NCBI GenBank assembly: GCA_017546445.1 | Contig: JAFYWX010000002.1 | Coordinates: 23,620-87,619 of the forward strand | DNA length: 64,000 nt | Origin: Akkermansia sp. | GTDB taxonomy: Bacteria; Verrucomicrobiota; Verrucomicrobiia; Verrucomicrobiales; Akkermansiaceae | Direction: 5' to 3' | Part shown: positions 38,997 to 59,713 of the stretch, in pieces | Numbering within the stretch: position 1 is the stretch's first letter | Layout of the letters: every line of letters begins with the position of its first letter | Notes under the pieces: generated by a model | Told to the model about the DNA's origin: nothing | What the model saw: only the letters and a program-made list of their open reading frames with translations | The model's database searches: none | Made by a program: the position numbers and the translations under genes

Positions 38997-39841
38997 GAGC
39001 GGGAAAGTTCAATGTTATCAATAAGACGCACATCGCCAAACCAGGCAGCGACGGCAAGAAGTGCAAGGGAATCCGGGGTAGAGAGTGCATGCAGCGTTAC
39101 AGCATCCACCAACTCCACGTAATCACAGCGCACGCCAGGTACAGATTCTAATTCCGCCCGCACCTGAGCACAAATGGCTTCCACCGCAGCACCTGCGGCA
39201 TACACCTCAGCAGCGGCCAGCAGGCTCTTGCGAATAATCGGAGCCGCAGCGCGGTGCTCCGGCGTAAGGCGCACATTGCGGCTGGAAAGGGCCAGGCCAT
39301 CTGCCTCGCGCACAATTTCTGCACCATGCAGAGTGATGGGCATATCCAGATCACGCACCATACGGCGCAGGATGGCAAGCTGCTGGTAATCCTTCTTGCC
39401 GAAAATGGCATCCGTAGGCTGCACAAGATTAAATAGCTTATTCACCACCAGGCAGACACCGGCGAAATGCCCGGGCCGGCTGGCACCGCAGAGCACCGTG
39501 GAAAGATGCGTTTCCTCCAGCGTGATGGAACGGTCTGCGCAATACATGATATCCGGCGTAGGCATGAACACCACATCCACCCCGCAGGATTCGCATATTT
39601 CTAAATCCTGCTCCGGCGTTTTCGGATATGTAGCCAGATCCCCGGCATTATCGAACTGTACAGGGTTCAGGAAAACACTGGCAACCACCACGCCCTCTTC
39701 CCCGGCCAACTGACGGGCCTGGCGAAGCAGGGTGGCGTGTCCCTCATGCAGGGCACCCATTGTCGGCACAAGCACGATGCGATTTCCACGCACGGGGGCC
39801 AGATATGAGCGCAATTCATCCTTCGTGTATGCGGTTTGCAT
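38993..39841 (-). CDS. panC: pantoate--beta-alanine ligase
   Basis: VPTMGALHEGH motif and ~280 aa length. Confidence 0.92.
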   Translation of the reverse strand: MQTAYTKDELRSYLAPVRGNRIVLVPTMGALHEGHATLLRQARQLAGEEGVVVASVFLNPVQFDNAGDLATYPKTPEQDLEICESCGVDVVFMPTPDIMYCADRSITLEETHLSTVLCGASRPGHFAGVCLVVNKLFNLVQPTDAIFGKKDYQQLAILRRMVRDLDMPITLHGAEIVREADGLALSSRNVRLTPEHRAAAPIIRKSLLAAAEVYAAGAAVEAICAQVRAELESVPGVRCDYVELVDAVTLHALSTPDSLALLAVAAWFGDVRLIDNIELSRS

Positions 39842-39926
39842 GAACGTATACTAGCACAAAGGCACAAGTGCATCAACCCATCATGACAGGGATAAATGCC
39901 TCCATGGGCACACCAACGCTCTTTTC

Positions 39927-39955
39927 TTGACTCACCCCGGGCGGCGCGCTATAAT
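39927..39955 (+). promoter_or_regulatory. near-consensus sigma70-type promoter of the GTPase module
   Basis: TTGACT, a 17-nt spacer, then TATAAT, ending ~25 nt upstream of the ATG at 39981. The track start at 39927 is the TTG of the -35 box. Confidence 0.6.
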
Positions 39956-39980
39956 ATCCGCAAGTTCAGCCTCCCTCCAC

Positions 39981-41723
39981 ATGAATAAACAACTATACAT
40001 TTACGATTGTCTGGCCGCCAAACTCCGGGCTTCTGATGGCGTATTCATGACCATTGGGGCGGGCGAGAAAAACACCTTCCGGATTCAGATGAGCGCAGAG
40101 AACGCGGGCTCCTTTGCCCAGCGTGATTCAGTCTGCCGCTTTTTTCCCCATGGCAAGGTTAATCAATACTCCCTGAACGGAATACCGTTGAAATCGGATG
40201 TAGTCATACGCCCCGAAACCATGTATCTGTTTGTGATGGAGGGTGGTTGCTTCATCTGCTGGTATGGGAACGATGCCTCACGCCCGGATTTCAGCATGTA
40301 TGACCCCACGGTCTGGTATCTCTACAACCCCTCCCGTGAGGAATGGTACGGCCCCTATTCCCTGAGCGATTTACCGCTGGTGGCACCGGAACTGCCGGAT
40401 GACGTGCTGGCCTCATTCGATGGTCTTGAACACTGCGCTTTTTATCTGAAGGATATCGTCAGCGTATCCCAGTTTGTTGGAAATAGCGAGATTAAGGAAC
40501 TCGTGCCAGAACCGGCGCAGAGCGGTGCAATTGAGGCTCTACGCTGCCCGAATTGCTGGGAATTCCTTATGCCTGAGGAGATTCTGAGCATTGCCGCGCA
40601 CCCCGAACTCATGGGTGATACCATTCTGGGAGAGGATGCCATGCAGCGTTTCATGCCGGAATATTGCAACGCGAATGGCCTGCCGCTGGATGCCATGGGA
40701 GTGCCGTGCAGCGAATATGCCTGCCCGCATTGCCACTGCAAGCTCCCCCCCTTCTTTGCGCAGACCAAGCAGCACATCATCTCGCTGGTGGGCGTGCCTG
40801 CTGCAGGTAAAAGCTATTACCTTACTTCGCTGGTGCACGAGCTCGAGTCAAAATTCCCGCGGGAATTCGGCATGCCGTTCCGGGATGCAGACCCGGAAAC
40901 CAACGAGCCCTTGAATGAGATGCGCATGCGGTTGTTCACAGCCCGTACCCCGCAGGAGGCCTATATCGCCAAAACCCACATGCAGGGGCGCCGCTACCAC
41001 AAGGTCTGGCGGCAAGGGGTATACGCCAATATGCCCCGTCCGTTTATCTACAACCTCAACAAGGGCTCAGAGGCGCACTCCATTGTGCTATACGATAATG
41101 CCGGCGAGGATTTTCAGCCGGGTCAAAATAACGTGCTTACCCCGGGTAGCCACCATCTCAGCGTAGCATCGGCCATTCTGTTCCTTTTCGACCCGACAGC
41201 CAATCCGGGATTCCGGCAGTTGCTCCAGGAATCTACTGACCCCCAGCTGCGAAATGCTCTGTACCGCCCAGGTCGGCAGGCCATGCTGCTGGCAGAATCG
41301 GAAATGCGGCTTCGCACCAAATTAAACCTGCCACCATCCGAAAAGCTGGATATTCCCCTGGCGGTCATCATCGGCAAGAGCGACACATGGCGCCACCTGT
41401 TGGGACCGGAGGATTTGCTGCCCGCCACGCGCAATGGGATGTTCATGGCAGAGCACGTCAACATCAACTCTGCAAGACTCCGCCAGTTCATCTTCAACAT
41501 CGCTCCGCATATCTGCACCAACGCTGAGACCATCTCCTCGAATGTGCGTTACTTCGCAGCCAGTGCCCTGGGTGAATCTCCTGTTGAATTCACCGATGAA
41601 TCAAGCGGCAGCACACTTATCGGCCCAGCCTCCGGGCAGGTGCATCCGGTGCGTGTCACCGAGCCATTCCTCTGGGCCCTTCACAACGTAGCACCTTCAC
41701 TCATCCCAAGCTCGCAGGTCTGA
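39981..41723 (+). CDS. P-loop (TRAFAC-like) GTPase with Zn-ribbon and N-terminal FHA-like/GYF-like modules
   Basis: Walker A GVPAAGKS (40791), hhhhDxxG VLYDNAGE (41094), GKSD at the NKxD position (41373). CPNC (40545) and CPHC (40722) form a putative Zn ribbon. WYLYNPSREEWYGPYSL is GYF-like. Confidence 0.6.
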   Translation: MNKQLYIYDCLAAKLRASDGVFMTIGAGEKNTFRIQMSAENAGSFAQRDSVCRFFPHGKVNQYSLNGIPLKSDVVIRPETMYLFVMEGGCFICWYGNDASRPDFSMYDPTVWYLYNPSREEWYGPYSLSDLPLVAPELPDDVLASFDGLEHCAFYLKDIVSVSQFVGNSEIKELVPEPAQSGAIEALRCPNCWEFLMPEEILSIAAHPELMGDTILGEDAMQRFMPEYCNANGLPLDAMGVPCSEYACPHCHCKLPPFFAQTKQHIISLVGVPAAGKSYYLTSLVHELESKFPREFGMPFRDADPETNEPLNEMRMRLFTARTPQEAYIAKTHMQGRRYHKVWRQGVYANMPRPFIYNLNKGSEAHSIVLYDNAGEDFQPGQNNVLTPGSHHLSVASAILFLFDPTANPGFRQLLQESTDPQLRNALYRPGRQAMLLAESEMRLRTKLNLPPSEKLDIPLAVIIGKSDTWRHLLGPEDLLPATRNGMFMAEHVNINSARLRQFIFNIAPHICTNAETISSNVRYFAASALGESPVEFTDESSGSTLIGPASGQVHPVRVTEPFLWALHNVAPSLIPSSQV

Positions 41724-41727
41724 GAGC

Positions 41728-44523
41728 ATGCCATTACAACTTATCCATACCAGCGCACCGCACCTGCTCGATTCAAATGCAGCAGGGTATGGCACCGTGG
41801 CAAGATCTGAGAATATGCCGCGCACGCTGTGTGCACAGCTCACCGCACTGAGCATTCTGCGTGACCCCCGTAGAGGGAGAGCCACCACCGGGCCGCAATA
41901 CAGCTACACACTGCTCTGCAACGCTGGCGAAATATGGCACGTACTGACCTGCACCCAGATTGCCGGAGCAGATTACAGCGGGCGCATGTGCCACATTGCT
42001 CACCATCTTCTCCTGAGTCAGGACGAGGTGCGTACCTTGCATGCAAACGAAACCCGGCCGACACCGGCTGGTATGATACTCGCGCTTCAGAAAACTGGTT
42101 TCTGGCAGCAGAAATGGGAAGAAGCCCCACGCTACCTGACGGAAGGGCCGACTCTCAGCCGGGATGATTTACCCAGCGCAGAGGCTCAGCCCACCTGGAA
42201 AAAGCTGACCGGGCACAAATCAAATGCCCGCGCCTTCTTTACGCCTCCCTATGAGCGGGATTGTCTTATCCTGGTATCCCCCGGCACCCCGGCAGCAGAT
42301 ATCCTCAGCCTGTTCCACGAAAGTGACTGGCTTACCCACTCCCGTGGCTGGGGGGTAAGCTTTACTACAGAGGCAGATGAGGGAGATAGCTTTTCTGAAA
42401 CCTTGCGAATGGTCACAGCCTACGATTCCCCGCTGGTTCAACGGGCCCAGCGTACGGGGCATCCAGTGCTCAAAATTGAACAGGGCATGGGAATTCCACT
42501 GACTCCAGAGCCGGCCATCTCCCCACAAAGCAATATACTGCATCCTGCCCCGCCCAGGCAGGATGGGGAACTGACGCGCACGCTTTCCCGCTCTATTTCC
42601 TATTACCATTATACGGAAGAACCGGATTGGCTTATGTATGATGTGCGCCCGGCCCGCACACGCGCACCTTATTATATTTCCGCAGGGGTTGCCGCGCTGG
42701 CCGCACTGGGGCTAATCACCGGGTATTTCTATTTATCAACAGAGCAGCATACAAACGATATAGCAGAGGAAGATGCCGGGCATGGCTCACTCTCCACCAA
42801 CCATGTTCATATTCTGACCGGGCTGCTGGGCTCGCCATATGACCATGAGAAAGCAGAGCAAGTCCTCAACGAGCTTGCCGGTATAACGGAGCACACTCAA
42901 GAGGACTCTCTGCTTCTGGAAACGGTATCCCTTATCCGCAATGCGTCACAGCCCGGGGCTCGCCACGCTCATGTAGTGAAGCGCCTTTGTGAATGCGCGC
43001 GCCTGCTTGGGCTGATGGATAAGGAACTTGTGCAGCTTTATCTTCACGAGGCTACATTCAATATCACCCCGGAGGAATGGCAGAAGCAATTTGATGGACA
43101 GCAGCTGACGGATTGGCTTATCCTGAAGCAAACGGAGCCTCAGATTCTCGGGCTGCTGGAAAATGATACAAAGCTGCGCAATTATGCACCGAAGGAGCAG
43201 CCGGCGCAGCCGACCATACTGGCAGCCGCTAATACGCCCACCCCGGAGCAAATTGAGCAGAATGAGCAGACTCCTCCGCCAGGCCGAGTGTCCCTTATTC
43301 CCACAACCGCTGTCAGCGGTATGGATTTGCCGGATGAACTTGAAGCGGCTCTCTCTAATCTGCCCCATACTATCAGCACGGGGGCCTATGTTGTCTCCAC
43401 TTTCACGAAAGGTGGTGAATTGCAGCCGCCTCAGCGGGTGGACCTGAGCCCGAATGGCTTCAGGCTCTGCATCACCGCTACAGACAAGAGCAACGAAATT
43501 GCTCTGCACCCGGAGCATGTAGAAGGCAAACCCTGCCCGGTGCCGCCCAGCGTATTCACGATGCGAAAAGGCAGGCTTCACCAAATCGAATCCGGCGGGC
43601 AGGAAGCCATTATTGCCTTTCCTGTGCCCACCAGGAAGGATTTCCACGCCAATGTCATCCTGGCAACTTCCTTTGGATTCCCCATACCGAAGGGCGAATC
43701 CATCACCCTGCCCCCTGCAGCCAAGGCAAATCTCGAGGTTACTCAGGATTCTTTTGAGCTTGAAGTGGCGTCCGGCAGCACAAATAGTCCCAGGCTCAAA
43801 CTGAAGAAGACAAAGAAATTTCCCTGGGTGCTCTCCCGGCAGGAGCAGAAGCGCATACGTTTCACAGTAAATCTGCCAGTTCTTGCCGGGCACAACACCA
43901 TGCAGCAGACGGGAAGCAACCTGAGCACCTACCAATGGACGGATGCTGATATTTCCAGGGAAACAGACAGCATGACTACCTTGCGCTGTGTGGTTACGCA
44001 CTGCTCCTCCCTGCCCGAGCGATTGGAACAGGCCTTTGACCGGGTTGCCAATTCACCCTGCTGTGGAGAAATCAAGAACCAGAAGAACGCGTCTCTTACT
44101 CTGGCCAGGCTTTATCATATATGCAATGCGCTGGCCAATGATAAACTGACACGAGAGCAGAAGAAACAGCTGCACCAGGACTATTTCGCGCTTTTTGCCA
44201 GCAAGTCTTTCAATGCTATCCTTGTCCGCATCCTGGCCCAGGACACTTTCCTGCACATCTCTCCGGAGGAAGCCAGTGCGGATAATCAGAAATCGAGAAA
44301 AGCACGCAATAATATCATCAAATATCTCAACGACCGCCAGGTGCGGGATCTCATCAGACAACGAATCAGAGAAGTTCTCACGCGCAGCCTTTATGCTGCC
44401 TATACGCAGGAGCAGCAGGATCTGGCCAGCAAGGCGGATGCCCCCCCTGTCCTGATTCTGAAAAACATCAGCATCGGAAGCCATGTGGAGCTCCTCTGGC
44501 AGTTCCAGATGCAGGAGAATTAA
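41728..44523 (+). CDS. large single-pass membrane protein with a GTPase-associated-protein (GAP1-like) N-terminal domain
   Basis: The N-terminus LQLIHTSAPHLL..AAGYGTVARS....ADYSGRMCHIAHHLLL matches my recollection of the GAP1 N-domain family. One TM helix YYISAGVAALAALGLITGYFYL (about 42670-42735). Starts 4 nt after the GTPase stop. Confidence 0.5.
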   Translation: MPLQLIHTSAPHLLDSNAAGYGTVARSENMPRTLCAQLTALSILRDPRRGRATTGPQYSYTLLCNAGEIWHVLTCTQIAGADYSGRMCHIAHHLLLSQDEVRTLHANETRPTPAGMILALQKTGFWQQKWEEAPRYLTEGPTLSRDDLPSAEAQPTWKKLTGHKSNARAFFTPPYERDCLILVSPGTPAADILSLFHESDWLTHSRGWGVSFTTEADEGDSFSETLRMVTAYDSPLVQRAQRTGHPVLKIEQGMGIPLTPEPAISPQSNILHPAPPRQDGELTRTLSRSISYYHYTEEPDWLMYDVRPARTRAPYYISAGVAALAALGLITGYFYLSTEQHTNDIAEEDAGHGSLSTNHVHILTGLLGSPYDHEKAEQVLNELAGITEHTQEDSLLLETVSLIRNASQPGARHAHVVKRLCECARLLGLMDKELVQLYLHEATFNITPEEWQKQFDGQQLTDWLILKQTEPQILGLLENDTKLRNYAPKEQPAQPTILAAANTPTPEQIEQNEQTPPPGRVSLIPTTAVSGMDLPDELEAALSNLPHTISTGAYVVSTFTKGGELQPPQRVDLSPNGFRLCITATDKSNEIALHPEHVEGKPCPVPPSVFTMRKGRLHQIESGGQEAIIAFPVPTRKDFHANVILATSFGFPIPKGESITLPPAAKANLEVTQDSFELEVASGSTNSPRLKLKKTKKFPWVLSRQEQKRIRFTVNLPVLAGHNTMQQTGSNLSTYQWTDADISRETDSMTTLRCVVTHCSSLPERLEQAFDRVANSPCCGEIKNQKNASLTLARLYHICNALANDKLTREQKKQLHQDYFALFASKSFNAILVRILAQDTFLHISPEEASADNQKSRKARNNIIKYLNDRQVRDLIRQRIREVLTRSLYAAYTQEQQDLASKADAPPVLILKNISIGSHVELLWQFQMQEN

Positions 44524-44535
44524 CATTGTCGCCAC

Positions 44536-46659
44536 ATGGCTCGCCGCCGCCCAGACCCTGTACTCCAGAAAACACGACGACTGGCTCGCGCCGGGCGCCG
44601 CAAGGAGGCTGCCGATATACTGGAACAGGCGCTGCGGGATAACCCGCATAACCTCAAGGCCAGAGAAGAATTCTCCCGCTACCTGACCGGCACCCCCTTT
44701 ACCTTCGAGGAAAGCGATTACAAGGAACTCCAGACCATCATATCCGATTTCCTGCACCATCCGCAGCGTTTCTCTTCAATGCGGAAGAGCAGGCTCAGAC
44801 AACTCCGCCACCGTGTTGCCTTTCTGGAGAAAGCGCTTCTCCATATGCTGACCGTGGCCGATAAGAAATCCCTGCAGCAACTGCATGGGACAATCGGCAG
44901 GGCCCTGCAGCGCCATCGCAAACCAATCGGCAGGCTTGGCATTATCCTGGCAGCAGGGGCAGTTCTGCTTGCAGGCCTGGGTGGTACCGGTTGGTTTCTG
45001 CATCACCAGGCTGCAAAAGCGGCTGAAACCATGGCGGCTTTGTCAAAAAAGGATTATGAAATCAACACGGCTCTTAATCTGCTGAAGATATATGATACCG
45101 GCCTGAATCGCACCCTGAACCGGCAGGTAGGTGAAGAAGCCGAACGCCTGCGCCATTCCATTAAGGTCGCAAGGCAGCGGTATCATGAAATTGATTCCAT
45201 TCTCAAGGAAATTGAGAGCAGAAAACAAAGCGTGGTGGGCCAGGGCGTGCGCCGTCGGGCTCTCATCGAACGCCAGCTCCGCATGCTGGGGAGCAATGCC
45301 GAGGATTTGCAGAAACGCTGGGCCGAACTTTGCCGATTAGAACAAAAGGAACTCAACCAGCAACGCCTTTCACTGGCAGAAGAGCTGATGGCCCCGCTGC
45401 CGACCTGGCAGGATCTGACCGGAATTCCCGAAGATGATACAGCACTGCTGAAGGCTCGACTCAAAGTGCTGCAGCAGCGCATCAATATCTATGAAGATGC
45501 GTCTGAAGCCCTGAAAATACCAGAGGAAATCATTAAGCCTGCCAGGGAGCAGCACGAAGCCAATACAGCCTTGCTTAAAGAGGTGAACGATTACCAGGCC
45601 TTGCTGAATCTACTCCCCACAGCGCGCAGTTACACCCGCTATAGGGAGCTGCTGCAGATGCACCCACGCTCCAGTTACCAACCCGCGCAGATGCTCCGGA
45701 AGGCACTTGAACAGATGCCCGTGGTAGCCACGGTGCGCGGAATGATGCAGGAACATGGCCAGAATATCTCACACAAGCTCTTGCAGGCAGCGAAGAGCAG
45801 TCTGTTGGATGGCAAACCCACATTTTCTGCGGATTTCCCGGCCAGCAAGGAACAGCTGCACCTGCTGGAGGAATTGTTAAGCAATTCTGCCCTGCGTACC
45901 CGGCTGTATGAGCTTACCAATGTGGACGACAGGCTTGAGGCATATTCTGAAGCCTTGCCCAAACTCCGGAATGGACGAGCCTGTTTCATGCGCTCATCGC
46001 TTGACCCGCAACGCAATTTTAACGAACCCAAAGCGGTGGAATGGCAGAACCCACAGGCTGTAGTCAGCCGCACGCTGGATCCGAGGCCTTTGTATAAGGC
46101 ACTCGGGCTGGATAACAGGAGCGGGTTCGCCGCCGTGGTTAACATGCCAGCCACTCTCACCCGCCTGCTTCAGCATGCGCACCCGGACGTGCCGCCACTG
46201 GCTAAGGCATATATTTTCCATCATCTCATCCAAGTGAATAACAACACCAGTAACCCGGTTATCAGCGGCCTGCGTTATGCACCTGATATGCGGCGGATAA
46301 TGGAGGAATTCGAGAACATACGCAAGGAATGCCATATTCAGCTGGATGGAAATTGCTGGTTGCGCCGCACTGAGGCGCATGCCCTGGCAGAACGCCGCTT
46401 CGCTAACTGGTTCCATAAGCACCGCAAGGCTGACTTCGTGGCCGAGCTGCGGAGGAATTTCGGAGTTTTGCTCAATATTGAGCCCCGCTTCTGCGGATAT
46501 ATCAACCAGAATGGTGAACCTGTCCTCTTTGAGCAGGTCAGCAAGGGGCAGATGATATGGCATATGTCGCAATCAGCCATGGTTCCCTCCCCATACGGGC
46601 AGGAGCTGCAGAAGCCGGATTTGTTTTCGCCGGTGTTCCTCATGAAGAAACAAGGTTAA
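44536..46659 (+). CDS. large single-pass membrane protein, TPR-like N-terminus and coiled-coil region
   Basis: Arg-rich TPR-like start, TM helix LGIILAAGAVLLAGLGGTGWFL (about 44932-45000), then heptad-rich sequence and a ~400 aa unassigned domain. Starts 12 nt after the previous stop. Confidence 0.45.
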   Translation: MARRRPDPVLQKTRRLARAGRRKEAADILEQALRDNPHNLKAREEFSRYLTGTPFTFEESDYKELQTIISDFLHHPQRFSSMRKSRLRQLRHRVAFLEKALLHMLTVADKKSLQQLHGTIGRALQRHRKPIGRLGIILAAGAVLLAGLGGTGWFLHHQAAKAAETMAALSKKDYEINTALNLLKIYDTGLNRTLNRQVGEEAERLRHSIKVARQRYHEIDSILKEIESRKQSVVGQGVRRRALIERQLRMLGSNAEDLQKRWAELCRLEQKELNQQRLSLAEELMAPLPTWQDLTGIPEDDTALLKARLKVLQQRINIYEDASEALKIPEEIIKPAREQHEANTALLKEVNDYQALLNLLPTARSYTRYRELLQMHPRSSYQPAQMLRKALEQMPVVATVRGMMQEHGQNISHKLLQAAKSSLLDGKPTFSADFPASKEQLHLLEELLSNSALRTRLYELTNVDDRLEAYSEALPKLRNGRACFMRSSLDPQRNFNEPKAVEWQNPQAVVSRTLDPRPLYKALGLDNRSGFAAVVNMPATLTRLLQHAHPDVPPLAKAYIFHHLIQVNNNTSNPVISGLRYAPDMRRIMEEFENIRKECHIQLDGNCWLRRTEAHALAERRFANWFHKHRKADFVAELRRNFGVLLNIEPRFCGYINQNGEPVLFEQVSKGQMIWHMSQSAMVPSPYGQELQKPDLFSPVFLMKKQG

Positions 46660-46666
46660 CATAGCC

Positions 46667-47158
46667 ATGCGCATAGCCCTTTGCTCAGATATACACGACC
46701 ACATCACCCACCTGCTGCTTGCTCTGGAAACCGCCAGGTCCGCAGGCTGCACGCACCTTCTTTTCATGGGAGATATGGCAGAGCTGAGCACCTTCCGCAC
46801 ACTGCTGGAGGAATGGGTACACCCCATTGACCTGGTTTTCGGCAATAATGAGTACCAGCTACGTGAGTTCCGGAAAATGGCGGCTACTCGGGACAACACA
46901 ACCATGCACGGAGAAATTGCCGATATAACACTCCAGAATCGGCGCATCTTCTTCTGCCACCTGCCCTGGGCTGCCCTTAAAGCGGCAGAAAGCGGGGCGT
47001 ATGATGCGGTGTTCTACGGCCATACCCATGCCGCAGACCTCCGCAGCGTGGGTAACACACTTCTTGTCAACCCTGGCGAGATTTATGGCCGCCAGTCTCG
47101 CCCATCCATTGCTGTTTACGATACAGACACCAACTCTGCCCGCCATATTCTTATCTGA
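46667..47158 (+). CDS. YfcE/MJ0936-type metallophosphoesterase
   Basis: CSDIHDH, GDM, GNNE and GHTH motifs in canonical order, 163 aa. Confidence 0.8.
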   Translation: MRIALCSDIHDHITHLLLALETARSAGCTHLLFMGDMAELSTFRTLLEEWVHPIDLVFGNNEYQLREFRKMAATRDNTTMHGEIADITLQNRRIFFCHLPWAALKAAESGAYDAVFYGHTHAADLRSVGNTLLVNPGEIYGRQSRPSIAVYDTDTNSARHILI

Positions 47159-47733
47159 TGGATTACCTGCTGTACAGATTCTCCGCGCTCGCGCCGGATA
47201 CTTGTGACCTGCAACTGCTGCCGGTGGCAGAACAGGCAATGGCGGCAAAGAGAGGCGGAAAATACGCGATAATCCGCACGCTTCTGCGCCAGGAATTAGA
47301 GCGGCGCTCCGGCGTGCCGGCGCTGGATATCAGCTTCAGCTATTCCGAACACGGGAAACCGATATTTGAGGCGCAGCCATTCAACATCAGCCACTCCGGG
47401 GATATGCTCTGCATGGCTTTCCACCACAGCAGTATTGGCGTGGATGTAGAACGCATGCGGCCGAGGCATTTCGCTGCACTGGCAGCCCGCACCATGTGCC
47501 CGGAGCAACTGGCTGCATTCCTGGAGCGTGGCTGCCAGCAGGAGGAGTTCTATGCCTGCTGGTGCGCCACAGAGGCCCTCGTGAAATGGGCTGGCGATAC
47601 CGTATGGAATGCTCAGCGTTATCCCTTCATCTACCGCCATAACCGCATTGAATGCCTTTTTGCAGATGCCCCCAGAGTTGAACTATTCGTCCCCGGACAG
47701 GGATACATGGGAGCCATTGCCTATACTATATAG
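47158..47733 (+). CDS. 4'-phosphopantetheinyl transferase (Sfp/EntD type)
   Basis: GVDVERM and WCATEALVKW motifs. 1-nt TGATG overlap with the phosphoesterase gene. Confidence 0.8.
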   Translation: MDYLLYRFSALAPDTCDLQLLPVAEQAMAAKRGGKYAIIRTLLRQELERRSGVPALDISFSYSEHGKPIFEAQPFNISHSGDMLCMAFHHSSIGVDVERMRPRHFAALAARTMCPEQLAAFLERGCQQEEFYACWCATEALVKWAGDTVWNAQRYPFIYRHNRIECLFADAPRVELFVPGQGYMGAIAYTI

Positions 47734-47757
47734 TAAGTAAGAATACATTGTAGCACT

Positions 47758-48564
47758 ATGCCATTCCACGTTCAATTAGTCGTCACCCTCATCACTGGAA
47801 GCGTTGTTTTCTGTCTGGTTCTCGGGCTGTTCGGTTTTCTTTCCTATAAAAACCAGCAGACTCTCCCGCCGGCGCCGCTCTTCCCGGATAGCAAATTTCC
47901 CTGCATTTTCTCCTATGTCTACACAATATGCTTCGGTATCATTTTCGCCATGGGCTCTATCCATAGCAGCCTGCTCCAGGGAACAAACTCTGCAGTGGAT
48001 GATAATCTGGCAACATTCTGCATCAATGCGCTGTACCAGATAGCGCTCTATATTCCCTTCCTGATTATTTACATGAGGCTCCCTTCTCGCCGTTTTTCCA
48101 GCACAGCAGGTCAGAAGATGCTCTGGGTTCTCGGGTTCCTGCTGCTGATGCTCATTCCCGGTATGGTTCTGGAGTCCATGAAGTTCTCCGAATGGATTGC
48201 AGAGCAGACAGGGGCACCTCTTCTCCAGGATGTCGTGACAACCATCAAGGACGGCTCCATTGAAATCAAGATTGCAATGATAGTGATGGCTGTGATTATT
48301 GCACCGGTGACGGAGGAGGTGTATTTCCGCGGCTTTGTCTACAATATTCTGAAGCTCTGGACCAGCCCGGTACCAGCAGCAATTGCGTCCTCCTTCTTCT
48401 TTGCCATTGTACACGCCTCACTGACGCAGGCCGTTCCCCTCATGTTATTTGCGCTGATTCAATGCTGGGCTTATGAGAAAGCCCGCTCGCTCTGGCTGCC
48501 GATTGTTCTGCATATGATCTTCAACGCCACGAGCTGCCTTGCCATCCTGTTTCTGCTAGATTAA
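47758..48564 (+). CDS. CPBP (CAAX-type) intramembrane metalloprotease family protein
   Basis: Multi-pass membrane protein with EEVYFRGF and FAIVHA motifs. Confidence 0.8.
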   Translation: MPFHVQLVVTLITGSVVFCLVLGLFGFLSYKNQQTLPPAPLFPDSKFPCIFSYVYTICFGIIFAMGSIHSSLLQGTNSAVDDNLATFCINALYQIALYIPFLIIYMRLPSRRFSSTAGQKMLWVLGFLLLMLIPGMVLESMKFSEWIAEQTGAPLLQDVVTTIKDGSIEIKIAMIVMAVIIAPVTEEVYFRGFVYNILKLWTSPVPAAIASSFFFAIVHASLTQAVPLMLFALIQCWAYEKARSLWLPIVLHMIFNATSCLAILFLLD

Positions 48565-51511: not shown

Positions 51512-55027
<3,516 letters not shown>

Positions 55028-55032
55028 TACGT

Positions 55033-56199
55033 ATGAAGAAGCAAATCGTTCTCTGGTGCATTCTGGCTATTCTCGGTTTGTTAGGGGGTGGTCTCGGCAA
55101 GATGTATCTGAAACCGCAGGCGCAGGAAGAAACAGCCCCCGCAGAACAGGAGCAGAAAGCGGAGCTGGCTACGGATGCCTTCAGTATCCGTTTCTTCCAG
55201 CACGCGATTACGGAGAAAGCAAGTGGTAACATCCTGGTGGCGCCCCGCATGGTTTCGGATATGCTGCTGGTGTTGCAGGAGCACGCCGCCGGCCAGACGC
55301 TGGAGGAACTGCGGGCACTGAATCTGCAGGCCGCCAGCACCCCCCGCGCCACAGAGCCCTGCTCAGCCATGCTGCTGGCCATGGATTTCAATCTGCCTCG
55401 CAATGATGGCAACCGCGGGGTGATGCCGCTTCCCTTCTCGGAGAATGTCCCCATGGCTCTCAGCCTGTTCAACGGCACCCTGGCCAACGCCACGGGTAAC
55501 GTCAACGGGCAGCTGGCGGCCAGCCAGATGGTAAGCAACCGCACCAAACTACTGCTTGGCGGCACCCTGCACCTGAGCAAGGACTGGGAAATCGCCATCA
55601 ACCCGGCGAATGCCCGCACGGCAGGCTTTGATAATGCTTCCGGCAGCATGCCGACTATTCACCAGATGCGCACCCGCGGGCTGTATCGCACCGCCCAGGC
55701 AGAGGATGGCAGCTGGAAAGCGGTGGCTCTGCCATTCAGGAAGGACCGGGACTCCGGCAGCTCTCTGGTCTACATCGGCATCCTGCCCGCAGGGTCGGCG
55801 CGCGATTTTGCAGCCCAGCTCACCCCGGAGCAGGTAACAGCTATTCGCAAGGCTCTGGCAGACACCACGCCGCAGGATACCCTGGTCGAGCAGCCCCGCC
55901 AGGAGCTGCAGATTCTCCCCTACGATATGCGTGACACCCTGCGCCGCATGGGGCTGAAGGCCTTGTTTGACCCGGAAACAGCCGATTTCTCGCCCATCAC
56001 CTCTGAGAAAATCCAGCTCGGCGCCGCTCTTTTCTCCGCCTCCGTGTATCTGGGCGAATCAAAGGAGCAGCCCAAGGCGGATGCCGCGCTGGATTACGCC
56101 GGCAAGGTCATCTCCTTCACCCGCCCGTACATCTGGCTCATCGCCGACCTGGAGACCAGCACTCCCATCGAATTTTTCGGTTTGGTGGAGGAGCTGTAA
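55033..56199 (+). CDS. serpin-family protein (secreted or lipoprotein)
   Basis: N-terminal hydrophobic signal, NILVAPRMVSDMLLVLQEHAAGQT (serpin helix B/C region), and C-terminal FTRPYIWLIADLETSTPIEFFGLV (serpin signature). Confidence 0.78.
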   Translation: MKKQIVLWCILAILGLLGGGLGKMYLKPQAQEETAPAEQEQKAELATDAFSIRFFQHAITEKASGNILVAPRMVSDMLLVLQEHAAGQTLEELRALNLQAASTPRATEPCSAMLLAMDFNLPRNDGNRGVMPLPFSENVPMALSLFNGTLANATGNVNGQLAASQMVSNRTKLLLGGTLHLSKDWEIAINPANARTAGFDNASGSMPTIHQMRTRGLYRTAQAEDGSWKAVALPFRKDRDSGSSLVYIGILPAGSARDFAAQLTPEQVTAIRKALADTTPQDTLVEQPRQELQILPYDMRDTLRRMGLKALFDPETADFSPITSEKIQLGAALFSASVYLGESKEQPKADAALDYAGKVISFTRPYIWLIADLETSTPIEFFGLVEEL

Positions 56200-57543: not shown

Positions 57544-58383
57544 ATGAAAGAGAACAAATTAGTAACACCTTTTCTCAAATGGGTTGGCGGAAAACGTCAA
57601 CTACTGAATGAAATTACAAGCTTTCTGCCTAAAGACATTAAGCGATTGCAGTACCACGAACCATTTATAGGAGGTGGTGCTGTTTTCTTTGCATTACAAC
57701 CTAAAAATGCGCGTATCAATGATTTTAATGAGGAATTAATTAACGTATACAGGGTCGTAAGAGACTCCCCTTCGGAACTCATTGAAAGCCTTAAAAAGCA
57801 CAAAAATTCGCACGATTATTACTACAGCATACGGGAACAAGATAGGATGCCTCTTTTCTCTGAATTATCCCCAATCGAACGGGCTTCCCGTATCATATAT
57901 CTGAATAAAACGTGTTATAATGGTTTATTCAGAGTTAACAACGCAGGTGAGTTTAATGTGCCATACGGAAAATATAAAAACCCAAATATCGTTAACGAAC
58001 CCGTAATAAGAGCAACAAGCAAATATCTCAACACAAATCAAATAGCGATATTGCATGGTGATTATGCAGAAGCATTGTCTGACATCTCAAGCAAATCCTT
58101 TGTATATCTTGATCCTCCATATCATCCGATATCCGACACATCAAACTTTACTGGATATATCCAAGGCGGATGGAATGCAGATGACCAACTGAGACTTCGC
58201 GATGTATGTATTGAACTCGACAGAAAAGGAGTCAAGTTTCTTTTATCGAATTCCTCCGCGCAAATGATTAAAGATATTTATTCAAATTTTAATATAGAAA
58301 TCGTTTGTGCCAGCAGAGCCATTAATTGTGACGCCAACAAACGTGGCAACGTGGAAGAAGTCCTTATAAGAAACTATGAATAA
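57544..58383 (+). CDS. dam: Dam-family (DpnM-like) N6-adenine DNA methyltransferase, probable GATC specificity
   Basis: FLKWVGGKRQLL, EPFIGGGAVFF (SAM binding) and DPPY catalytic motif. Colinear along its whole length with my recollection of M.DpnII (DpnM). Confidence 0.9.
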   Translation: MKENKLVTPFLKWVGGKRQLLNEITSFLPKDIKRLQYHEPFIGGGAVFFALQPKNARINDFNEELINVYRVVRDSPSELIESLKKHKNSHDYYYSIREQDRMPLFSELSPIERASRIIYLNKTCYNGLFRVNNAGEFNVPYGKYKNPNIVNEPVIRATSKYLNTNQIAILHGDYAEALSDISSKSFVYLDPPYHPISDTSNFTGYIQGGWNADDQLRLRDVCIELDRKGVKFLLSNSSAQMIKDIYSNFNIEIVCASRAINCDANKRGNVEEVLIRNYE

Positions 58384-59713
58384 AAGAACGAAGATTTCCA
58401 AGAATGATGAAGCATGGGAGCAACTTTTCAACAAACATCAGATATTAGATAAAATAAATTCTACAGGTCAATACATCATAAAAGCTGAGGAGATCAATAC
58501 AGTTAGAGAAGCTCGGCTTATGACGAAAATCGATCATGAATATCAACTTCCCAAGATTTTCAAAGACAACGGCCTCTCCATCCTTCCGATATCGCGAGGA
58601 GAGTATATCATCTCTAAAGCCCTAACCTTTACGAAAATCCAAAGTTCCCAAGATTGCAAAATCAAAGAAGTTGAGTTACCTCCGTTTCTTGAGAGCATAT
58701 CTCCTGAAAATATTACCAGCGAAGCGATTGCTCTAAATTCTGCTTACGCAGCAGGTATAATTTCTGATTTTTTAGGTGAAGATAGCACCTATCCAACCCT
58801 CAGTGGTCGAATGGGGTCGGGTGAGTTCTCTTTCGATATCCACTCGAAAGAGAAAAGCATCATAAACATCCATGTTGATAGAGCACAAATGGAAATCGAT
58901 GCCTGTTATGAAGGCGAACGTTGGGTATGTATTATTGAAGCAAAAAACTCTTTTGACGATGATTTCATTATTAGACAATTATATTATCCCTATAGAGCAT
59001 TAACCGCACGATTAAAAAAGTCTATACGCACTGTTTTTTTTACCTATTCTAATGACATATATCATTTAAGAGAGTACAAGTTTGACACACCACAAAACTA
59101 CAATTCTATTTCATTTGTAGGAGAAAAGCGCTATAGGATCAAGAGAAAAGATGAAGAAATTACAATCAACATAGAATCTATACAGAATCTAGCCAAGAGC
59201 ATCCTCAACCAGCAAGAACCAGAGGGAATTCCATTCCCCCAAGCTGATAACTTTGAACGCATCATCTATCTTTGTGAAATAATCCATCGTAATAACAGTA
59301 GATATACAAAATCTGATCTTTCAATAAATTCGGACTTTACACTTCAAGATAATTTTGACCCAAGGCAGGTTGACTATTACACAAATGCTGCTCAATATTT
59401 AGGACTTATAAGCAAGAATGTCTGTAATAAAAAGATAAGTTACTCACTGACACCCCAGGGTACAGATATATTCAATACTACAGATTACTCGAAAAGGCAA
59501 CTTCAACTTATACGGTGCATACTGGAACACTCTAGTTTCCGTGAGACATTGAATCTCTATCTACACAAAGCGGAGATACCAAGCATTGAGGAAATAGTGC
59601 AGATAATGAAAAATAGGAATCTGTACAAAGTCTCAGCCGATTCTACTTATAAGCGGCGCGCTCAAACTGTCAAGTCATGGGTTAATTGGATCGTGGGAAC
59701 AATAAATGAATAA
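58376..59713 (+). CDS. type II restriction endonuclease candidate (PD-(D/E)xK) with a C-terminal extension
   Basis: 8-nt overlap with the dam stop. EIDACYEGERWVCIIEAKNS fits D...(D/E)xK. It does not resemble DpnII/MboI or Sau3AI as I recall them. Confidence 0.6.
   Translation: MNKRTKISKNDEAWEQLFNKHQILDKINSTGQYIIKAEEINTVREARLMTKIDHEYQLPKIFKDNGLSILPISRGEYIISKALTFTKIQSSQDCKIKEVELPPFLESISPENITSEAIALNSAYAAGIISDFLGEDSTYPTLSGRMGSGEFSFDIHSKEKSIINIHVDRAQMEIDACYEGERWVCIIEAKNSFDDDFIIRQLYYPYRALTARLKKSIRTVFFTYSNDIYHLREYKFDTPQNYNSISFVGEKRYRIKRKDEEITINIESIQNLAKSILNQQEPEGIPFPQADNFERIIYLCEIIHRNNSRYTKSDLSINSDFTLQDNFDPRQVDYYTNAAQYLGLISKNVCNKKISYSLTPQGTDIFNTTDYSKRQLQLIRCILEHSSFRETLNLYLHKAEIPSIEEIVQIMKNRNLYKVSADSTYKRRAQTVKSWVNWIVGTINE

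Follow-up and report, generated by a model that had tools for sequence, protein, structure and literature searches.

An A-B-C gene triad of Akkermansia as a probable Verrucomicrobiota variant of DO-GTPase/GAP1-N2 systems and a candidate trans-envelope GTPase switch

What is a soluble GTPase doing when it is encoded immediately upstream of two large single-pass membrane proteins, and does such a locus serve in defence or in a resident role at the cell envelope? This question is raised by three genes, here named A, B and C, at positions 39981–46659 of a 64,000-nucleotide stretch of DNA from Akkermansia sp. (contig JAFYWX010000002.1), which we refer to as the window. The original prediction, an earlier reading of the same DNA, had described them as a three-gene module, as a candidate for an undescribed system and as possibly lineage-conserved rather than mobile. 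New in the present analysis are the conservation of the A-B-C triad across the phylum Verrucomicrobiota, its non-mobile mode of evolution under purifying selection, and the association of its relatives with genes of the MotA/ExbB type.

Based on its domain content, the module is very probably a Verrucomicrobiota-specific variant of the GTPase-centric DO-GTPase/GAP1-N2 systems. We assign it to this class because protein B matches the Pfam family GAP1-N2 (PF20013), protein A reaches the family DO-GTPase2 (PF19993) at threshold, and a Walker B glutamate, a zinc ribbon and a downstream GAP1 gene are present. These systems were defined by sequence analysis by Kaur, Burroughs, Iyer & Aravind (2020; eLife 9:e52696; PMC7159879). 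Their features include the Walker B glutamate, N-terminal zinc ribbons (one or two on the GTPase, in 60% of members), the downstream GAP1 gene and frequent C-terminal membrane segments in GAP1, in which globular GAP1-M and GAP1-C domains follow GAP1-N. The authors name verrucomicrobiae as carriers and count 904 organisms for GAP1-N2. The module shares with these systems a TRAFAC GTPase with the Walker B glutamate (E376, invariant) and an N-terminal zinc ribbon in A, a GAP1-N2 gene directly downstream, a GAP1 protein with a C-terminal membrane segment, a presumed membrane-proximal action and the occurrence in verrucomicrobiae.

It is nevertheless a distinct variant, characterized by a single FHA/zinc-ribbon GTPase instead of a pair, a GAP1 protein with a predicted periplasmic immunoglobulin (Ig)-like part, a new and constant third protein, C, and the lack of all three published accessory themes (tubulin, HSP70/GrpE and kinase/PP2C). 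The FHA-like domain is an extra of this GTPase. The published systems include an accompanying protein with rapidly evolving fibronectin type III (FNIII) repeats, whereas the module has neither a separate FNIII-repeat protein nor an fn3 match in Pfam and carries two predicted Ig-like sandwiches inside B instead; C constitutes a new family, and GAP1-M and GAP1-C went undetected. In the published systems, effector components are highly variable between close relatives. Such variability is not seen here: gene content is constant, with A-B-C-D-E (D and E being the two genes after C) in 24 of 28 loci of the Akkermansia clade. The MotA/ExbB linkage of the relatives is not mentioned by Kaur et al. (2020), and their supplementary text has no Akkermansia, Prosthecobacter or MotA entries.

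In our literature search only that computational survey names these families, and experimental work was not found, in agreement with the earlier statement that partners of the B type had been described only computationally and were not known to have been characterized experimentally; looking in the literature for transposon mutants of genes of this kind in Akkermansia was not productive either. The label "undescribed system" accordingly goes too far: the A+B core is of a published kind, but the variant itself has not been specifically described and the kind is known only in silico. DO-GTPase/GAP1 is a large class, so far described in silico only. This variant could make it more accessible, as a compact set of three constant genes without variable effectors, vertically inherited in a gut-relevant genus and with confident structure models now at hand for B and C.

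All three genes lie on the forward strand, as do all features of the module given below. A (39981..41723) encodes 580 amino acids, B (41728..44523) 931 and C (44536..46659) 707, with gaps of 4 nucleotides (nt) between A and B and 12 nt between B and C. Upstream of A lies a sigma-70-like promoter, TTGACT-17 nt-TATAAT (39927..39955), that matches the consensus at 11 of 12 positions. We take this promoter as real because matches of at least 11/12 are rare (five in the window, ~12-fold over the 0.43 expected from a first-order Markov simulation) and because ~15 orthologous loci keep both boxes as CTCTTTTCTTGACTC...TATAAT while the spacer sequence between them varies. The total of weak promoter-like matches in the region is no higher than chance. 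The mechanical list of open reading frames (ORFs) offers two starts for A, TTG at 39927 and ATG at 39981, with the same end at 41723. We rejected the TTG codon because it is located in the promoter, within the –35 box, and homologues begin at the ATG; the N-terminus MN(K/N)QLYIYDC of A homologues (n = 7) supports 39981 as the start. The near-consensus promoter and the three co-directional, closely spaced ORFs described before are recovered, with one point to amend. A, B and C are indeed tightly packed, but the packed co-directional run continues past C through D, E, F and thiL (gaps C-D 7 nt, D-E –1, i.e. a 1-nt overlap, E-F 24 and F-thiL 3), and a scan of 39000–47500 found no terminator-like site on the forward strand.

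Protein A is a soluble protein of three parts. The N-terminal ~105 residues (residues 1–105; 39981..40295) form a divergent FHA-like domain, which aligns with the region of a Chthoniobacter homologue (locus L088) that scores 26.9 bits against Pfam FHA (cut-off 20.7). The window protein itself has no Pfam FHA match and the canonical Gly-Arg is not present, while the extra invariant residues C10, C52, H57, C90 and C93 have been gained. The second part is a zinc ribbon (CPNC...CPHC, residues 186–255; 40536..40745), whose four cysteines form two CPxC knuckles at residues 189–192 (CPNC) and 248–251 (CPHC) that are invariant in a seven-sequence alignment. The GTPase domain (residues 263–580; 40767..41723) contains a Walker A motif, GVPAAGKS (271–278), a Walker B/G3 motif, YDNAGE (371–376), and a G4-like motif, GKSD (465–468). 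In the same alignment, G271, P273, G276-K277, Y371-E376, G465-K466 and D468 are invariant core residues. Against PF19993, A scores 26.4 bits (E 6.7e-6), which is borderline at a cut-off of 27; six of seven A homologues match this family, and many of the relatives in the database, where we counted 1413 homologues of A, carry PF19993 as precomputed annotation. The invariant motifs and CPxC pairs and the borderline family match bear out the initial description of A as a zinc-ribbon P-loop GTPase of TRAFAC-like type.

A hydropathy scan found no hydrophobic helix in A, and no gene of the module is more strongly conserved than A. Profile searches had been proposed as a check on the family membership of A, B and C. 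They place B in GAP1-N2, and since searches of NCBIfam, PADLOC and PDB sequences found nothing for A, it appears not to be a known housekeeping GTPase. None of the best 120 matches of A was named A. muciniphila at ~45% identity or more. A GYF domain in A (residues ~110–165, WYLYxxxxxxWxGP) was considered and set aside: it has no Pfam match, and when neighbouring proteins with GYF domains were compared by hhalign, the probability was 20% over 19 columns, so that we regard this GYF-like stretch as a motif-level hint only. A PDB match of A to a transcription activator-like (TAL) effector was discarded as a repeat artefact with no significant stretch.

In protein B, residues 4–100 match PF20013 with 44.2 bits (cut-off 24, E 2.5e-11), and the Prosthecobacter orthologue reaches 68 bits, in line with the earlier reading of this N-terminus as one of GTPase-associated protein 1 type. 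B has 125 homologues, with full-length alignment down to 28% identity, and a protein identical to B is a hypothetical protein of an "Akkermansia sp." metagenome-assembled genome (MAG). The AlphaFold2 (AF2) model of B has a predicted local distance difference test score (pLDDT) of 81. The cytoplasmic alpha+beta domain (GAP1-N2 and the part following it, residues 1–250; 41728..42477) is modelled confidently and conserved across the phylum, where the motifs QLIxTSA, GxGTVAR, DYxGRxxHxAHHL and W..TFTT are kept. The conserved alpha+beta region after N2 (residues ~100–250) could be a divergent GAP1-M domain.

A disordered, proline-rich linker of low pLDDT (residues 258–312) connects this domain to the membrane helix (residues 313–335; 42664..42732), which is supported by hydropathy, flanking charges of +2/–5 and an AF2 helix at 313–335; hydropathy places the single hydrophobic helix of B at residues 316–335, with ~315 residues on the cytoplasmic side. 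Just before this helix and after the linker lies the conserved juxtamembrane motif HYHYTEEPDW (residues 292–301; window 42601–42630). Its residues Y293, E297 and D300 are invariant in 38 homologues, and the parts of A that resemble FHA or GYF domains might dock here. The predicted periplasmic part (residues 359–931; 42802..44523; from AF2 secondary structure and Foldseek) is composed of a helical region (359–480), two beta-sandwich, Ig-like domains (~525–760) and a helical bundle with a hairpin (762–929). No Pfam match falls within it, and Foldseek of the B model returned weak matches to tandem Ig domains, the best being 2pet at E 6e-3.

Protein C belongs to a small family, placed in Verrucomicrobiota by context analysis, with 67 close homologues; an exhaustive profile search found only 133 representative clusters among 1.84 billion proteins, and distant relatives of 850–1100 amino acids match only residues ~515–705. 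The AF2 model of C has a pLDDT of 86.6, and at full length it gave no Foldseek match at E ≤ 0.001 against PDB and BFVD. An arginine-rich, helical (TPR-like) cytoplasmic head (residues 8–126; 44557..44913; AF2 helices, 15% Arg) matches TPR_14 weakly (E 0.001, below cut-off), and there is no other family for C. The membrane helix (residues 130–160; 44923..45015) has a hydropathy of 1.97, a +4 charge on its N-terminal side and an AF2 helix from residue 137; hydropathy gives a single hydrophobic helix at residues 130–155, with ~129 residues on the cytoplasmic side. In the predicted periplasmic part (residues 161–707; 45016..46659), AF2 models long helices to about residue 455 and then an alpha/beta domain (457–707), the most widely conserved portion of C. 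The earlier topology of one membrane helix in each of B and C, with cytoplasmic parts of these sizes, agrees with our analysis. Because the flanking charges are positive-inside, both proteins are predicted to be oriented N-in/C-out, with their large C-terminal parts in the periplasm.

Whether A, B and C co-occur outside this genome had been left as a check, and they do. Using an alignment of A as query and a single genome for each GTDB species, we confirmed at least 529 loci and analysed the best 80. All of these belong to Verrucomicrobiota, namely Akkermansia, other Akkermansiaceae, Roseibacillus, Prosthecobacter, Brevifollis, Chthoniobacter and Opitutae. According to ORF and profile analysis, B follows A in 73 of the 80 loci, and six of the seven exceptions are cut contigs. 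In 61 of the 80, B is in turn followed by C; contig ends again account for most exceptions, and five loci with enough DNA have no C. Some Akkermansia MAGs harbor a second, paralogous A-B-C system in which A is 34–45% identical (loci L041, L042, L046 and L051; L051 and L026 derive from the same MAG). Partners of this paralogous system are a protein with Sel1 and ankyrin repeats and several GYF_2 proteins, one of which is a fusion with a membrane protease of the PrsW type.

Outside Akkermansia, 20 of the 31 loci that are informative, having sufficient downstream DNA, carry a motor-type four-gene set beside the triad. It consists of a GYF_2/DUF4190/PrsW-type membrane protein, a MotA/ExbB-family protein (PF01618, 40 bits) and two coiled-coil proteins that cross the membrane once, have an Asp in their N-terminal helix and are ExbD/TolR-like by eye only. 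Examples are L049:17244-20558 and L070:17325-20783, and ~20 further loci are found in Prosthecobacter, Brevifollis, Chthoniobacter and others; two of the loci have it inverted or relocated to a position upstream of A. In Zorya (ZorAB) and the Tol/Ton systems, MotA/ExbB-type stators work with long partners that span the envelope, and the relatives resemble them through the MotA_ExbB-family gene and the pair of Asp-bearing single-pass proteins beside the triad. The resemblance is confined to the relatives; PADLOC gave no Zorya match, no ZorC/D-like or TonB-like domain was detected, and the conserved core here is a GTPase.

The mode of evolution of the module bears directly on its role. The GC content of A to C is 0.548–0.557 against 0.544 for the window, which matches the native base composition noted earlier, and panC adjoins the module in at least 20 Akkermansia loci. 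We determined the pairwise ratio of nonsynonymous to synonymous substitution rates (dN/dS) against the closest orthologue as gene averages (dS ~0.6–1.1, not saturated). The GTPase domain of A has a value of 0.022, and all regions of B and C fall at 0.10–0.16, compared with 0.10 for panC, 0.086 for thiL, 0.14 for D and 0.18 for E. Relative to orthologues, the GTPase domain of A is at least as conserved as panC and thiL, and an intermediate level is seen for the cytoplasmic domain of B. At these values, diversifying selection acting across the whole of B and C was rejected; because they resemble those of panC and thiL, B and C look like ordinary, moderately constrained genes. PADLOC (PADLOC-DB v2) gave no match for A or B and only two weak, coiled-coil-type matches for C (LmuB, E 3.7e-4; JetA, E 0.04), PHROGs gave no match for any of the three proteins, and NCBIfam returned nothing useful. 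Scans against Pfam, NCBIfam and PADLOC revealed neither effector nor toxic nor pore-forming domains in the three proteins. From its constant location beside panC, a promoter that is kept in orthologues, the native GC content, the low dN/dS and the lack of PADLOC (A and B) and PHROG matches, we conclude that the module is vertically inherited, chromosomally fixed and under purifying selection, rather than a mobile island. The original prediction had favoured a lineage-conserved over a mobile system, and native GC, panC synteny, purifying selection and the database results all side with it.

Based on these observations, we propose a composite model, to which we give an even chance, in which the module is a trans-envelope GTPase switch with a conserved envelope role rather than a role in defence. 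With its N-terminal half, which carries the FHA-like domain and the zinc ribbon, A would bind to the GAP1-N2 domain of B on the cytoplasmic side of the membrane, and it would probably also contact the helical head of C, resulting in a membrane-anchored switch. B and C would each cross the inner membrane once and project ~600 and ~550 residues into the periplasm, as helical rods, two Ig-like domains and one new alpha/beta domain, which may contact an envelope structure or a ligand. The GTP cycle of A, in which B would modulate binding and hydrolysis, would then set the assembly or conformational state of the trans-envelope complex; alternatively, the signal could run in the opposite direction, a periplasmic event being reported inwards to A. 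An envelope role appears likelier than mobile anti-phage defence because inheritance is strictly vertical, purifying selection is strong and a toxic effector is lacking.

The best working analogy, in the sense of function and not of homology, is the Agl-Glt focal-adhesion machinery of Myxococcus xanthus, a GTPase-gated trans-envelope machine in which the single-pass protein GltJ reads the MglA GTPase through its zinc ribbon and GYF domain and the TolQR-like Agl motor provides the drive (PMC11135422). Both would combine a GTPase switch, zinc-ribbon/GYF-type modules and single-pass inner-membrane proteins with long periplasmic extensions, and a TolQR/ExbBD-like proton channel is seen in relatives of the module. 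The GTPase families differ, with no homology shown; the zinc ribbon here resides on the GTPase itself, and the window holds no motor genes. The MotA/ExbB-type channel and the ExbD-recalling proteins beside the triad elsewhere suggest that the ancestral machine was probably powered by the proton gradient, while the Akkermansia clade of the window keeps only the switch core at the locus.

A more far-reaching proposal, which we put forward tentatively and with clearly less than even confidence, is that A-B-C is the conserved core of a hitherto unrecognized, phylum-wide trans-envelope machine in which the FHA/zinc-ribbon GTPase gates a MotA/ExbB-powered complex. The version of the Akkermansia clade would be motor-less or have its motor encoded in trans, and the machine would have a housekeeping role in envelope organization, not in defence. 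The phylum-wide triad, purifying selection and MotA/ExbB linkage together favour such a conserved GTPase-gated envelope machine over mobile defence. If true, it would stand as a new machine beside Tol, Ton, Agl-Glt and Zorya and add an envelope apparatus to those of Verrucomicrobiota, and part of the class filed as "conflict systems" would need re-reading.

Several observations weigh against the composite switch model and its foundations. With respect to class membership, A falls 0.6 bits short of the Pfam cut-off for DO-GTPase2, and a Pfam scan of B found neither GAP1-M nor GAP1-C at E ≤ 1. The predicted periplasmic location of the large parts of B and C derives solely from the positive-inside rule. 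The link to a motor may not apply here, because no GYF/DUF4190, MotA/ExbB or ExbD-like homologue is present in the 64-kb window. The periplasmic parts of B and C retain 24–36% identity where panC keeps 75%, a fast divergence that would also fit a conflict system with fast-evolving sensors, and dN/dS as a gene average may leave room for positive selection at a few sites. Finally, Kaur et al. (PMC7159879) read the whole class as conflict systems.

The strongest competitor, which we consider unlikely but far from negligible, follows that interpretation (Kaur et al. 2020): the module would be an anti-phage or anti-invader system in which the quickly evolving Ig-like and helical portions of B and C in the periplasm sense the invader at the envelope, A sets the threshold and an effector is then released. 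The effector would possibly be the phosphoesterase D (calcineurin-type), or else the membrane would be disrupted by B/C oligomers. Membership in a class so interpreted speaks for it, as does the divergence of the periplasmic parts, which is far faster than that of A or of the housekeeping neighbours. In the sister GAP1-N1 systems, the effector is most often a phosphoesterase of the calcineurin superfamily (PMC7159879), and one lies 7 nt 3′ of C and is kept throughout the clade; in addition, some genomes have the second, paralogous copy with its other accessory set (GYF/PrsW, Sel1-ankyrin). Yet neither a toxic nor a pore-forming domain was detected in A, B and C, A and B match neither PADLOC nor PHROGs, and dN/dS of B and C is similar to that of panC and thiL. 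D has no adaptor domain and is not at the locus outside the Akkermansia clade. Position and promoter of the module are conserved and its GC content is native, unlike that of a real low-GC island at 57.5–62 kb in the same window.

A different mechanism is suggested by TagF, which binds and sequesters the FHA protein Fha and thereby acts as a post-translational checkpoint of type VI secretion (PMC5995506; also bioRxiv 10.64898/2025.12.08.692957). By analogy, the cytoplasmic domain of B would sequester the FHA-like domain of A, making the module a phospho-threonine/FHA-type checkpoint of a membrane machine. As in the TagF case, an alpha+beta regulator domain would meet an FHA-domain partner at a membrane machine, and the N-terminus of A is homologous to the true FHA domain of the Chthoniobacter orthologue. 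Foldseek of the B model matched TagF of Acinetobacter baylyi (9t0n) in the region of residues 1–250 with a probability of 0.94 over 246 columns, but the match is weak (E 0.023, template modelling score 0.32, root mean square deviation 7.9 Å), and a 21-sequence profile of the B cytoplasmic domain found no PDB sequence at E ≤ 10. There is no sequence similarity to TagF, there are no type VI secretion genes, and the FHA-like domain is fused to the GTPase. Since window A also lacks both the Pfam FHA match and the Gly-Arg pair, and the ORF list contains no Ser/Thr kinase or phosphatase gene at the locus, we regard this mechanism as improbable.

The run of packed genes raises the further idea that the functional unit comprises five genes. 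Gene D (46667..47158, + strand), which starts 7 nt after C, encodes a Metallophos_2 (YfcE/MJ0936-type) phosphoesterase (PF12850, 99 bits), a plain enzyme of 163 amino acids. Gene E (47158..47733, + strand) encodes an Sfp-type 4′-phosphopantetheinyl transferase (PF01648, 40 bits) and overlaps D by 1 nt. Gene F is Rce1/CPBP-like and is followed by thiL. In a five-gene unit A-B-C-D-E, E would attach, and D take off, a phosphopantetheine-type or nucleotide-derived group on some part of the membrane complex, or the two would make or degrade a signal for it. In the scan, 28 loci have D and E after the module, all from the Akkermansia clade (A at least ~47% identical), and E always accompanies D. This linkage persists where the genes flanking the whole run are different (ArgJ, ParDE or C_GCAxxG upstream; DUF1015 or TP_methylase downstream) and in four loci without C (L026, L028, L029 and L040), in which B is directly followed by the phosphoesterase and transferase genes; in L028 the B-like ORF has ~1170 amino acids. 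The short gaps and the lack of a detected terminator fit the five-gene unit as well. The linkage is, however, limited to this one clade, D and E being absent from the locus in 38 more distant A-B-C loci, several loci have 140–390 nt between C and D, and a Pfam scan found no carrier-protein domain in A, B or C.

The divergence history of the segment is also different. Compared with the closest relative (L009), D-E-F (46667–48564) shows a dS of 1.3–1.4 and amino-acid identities of 74, 69 and 57%, while the flanking genes thiL (dS 0.23, 96% identity) and panC (dS 0.42, 93%) are far less diverged; dS for A-B-C is 0.6–1.1. Because D-E-F is far more diverged from L009 than thiL, panC or A-B-C, these values suggest that the segment was replaced by recombination. 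All in all, we see little prospect for the five-gene unit and treat D and E as conserved downstream neighbours that are possibly accessory. The neighbours are housekeeping genes, as described earlier, but the phosphoesterase and the phosphopantetheinyl transferase are conserved neighbours of the module in the clade. A chance juxtaposition of three unrelated ORFs was ruled out, as the A-B-C triad is conserved.

Other features of the window stand apart from the module. GC content drops to 0.39–0.47 between ~56000 and 62000, against a window mean of 0.544. This stretch contains a D12 (Dam-type) N6-adenine DNA methyltransferase gene (57544..58383) and an overlapping gene for a DUF6996/DUF6997/DUF7226 protein (58376..59713), and is probably an acquired, restriction-modification-like island. 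A gene of the bacterial serpin family (55033–56199) immediately follows dnaE (51512..55027). The sole Rfam match in the window is a bacterial class A RNase P RNA at 2497–2880 (205.6 bits).

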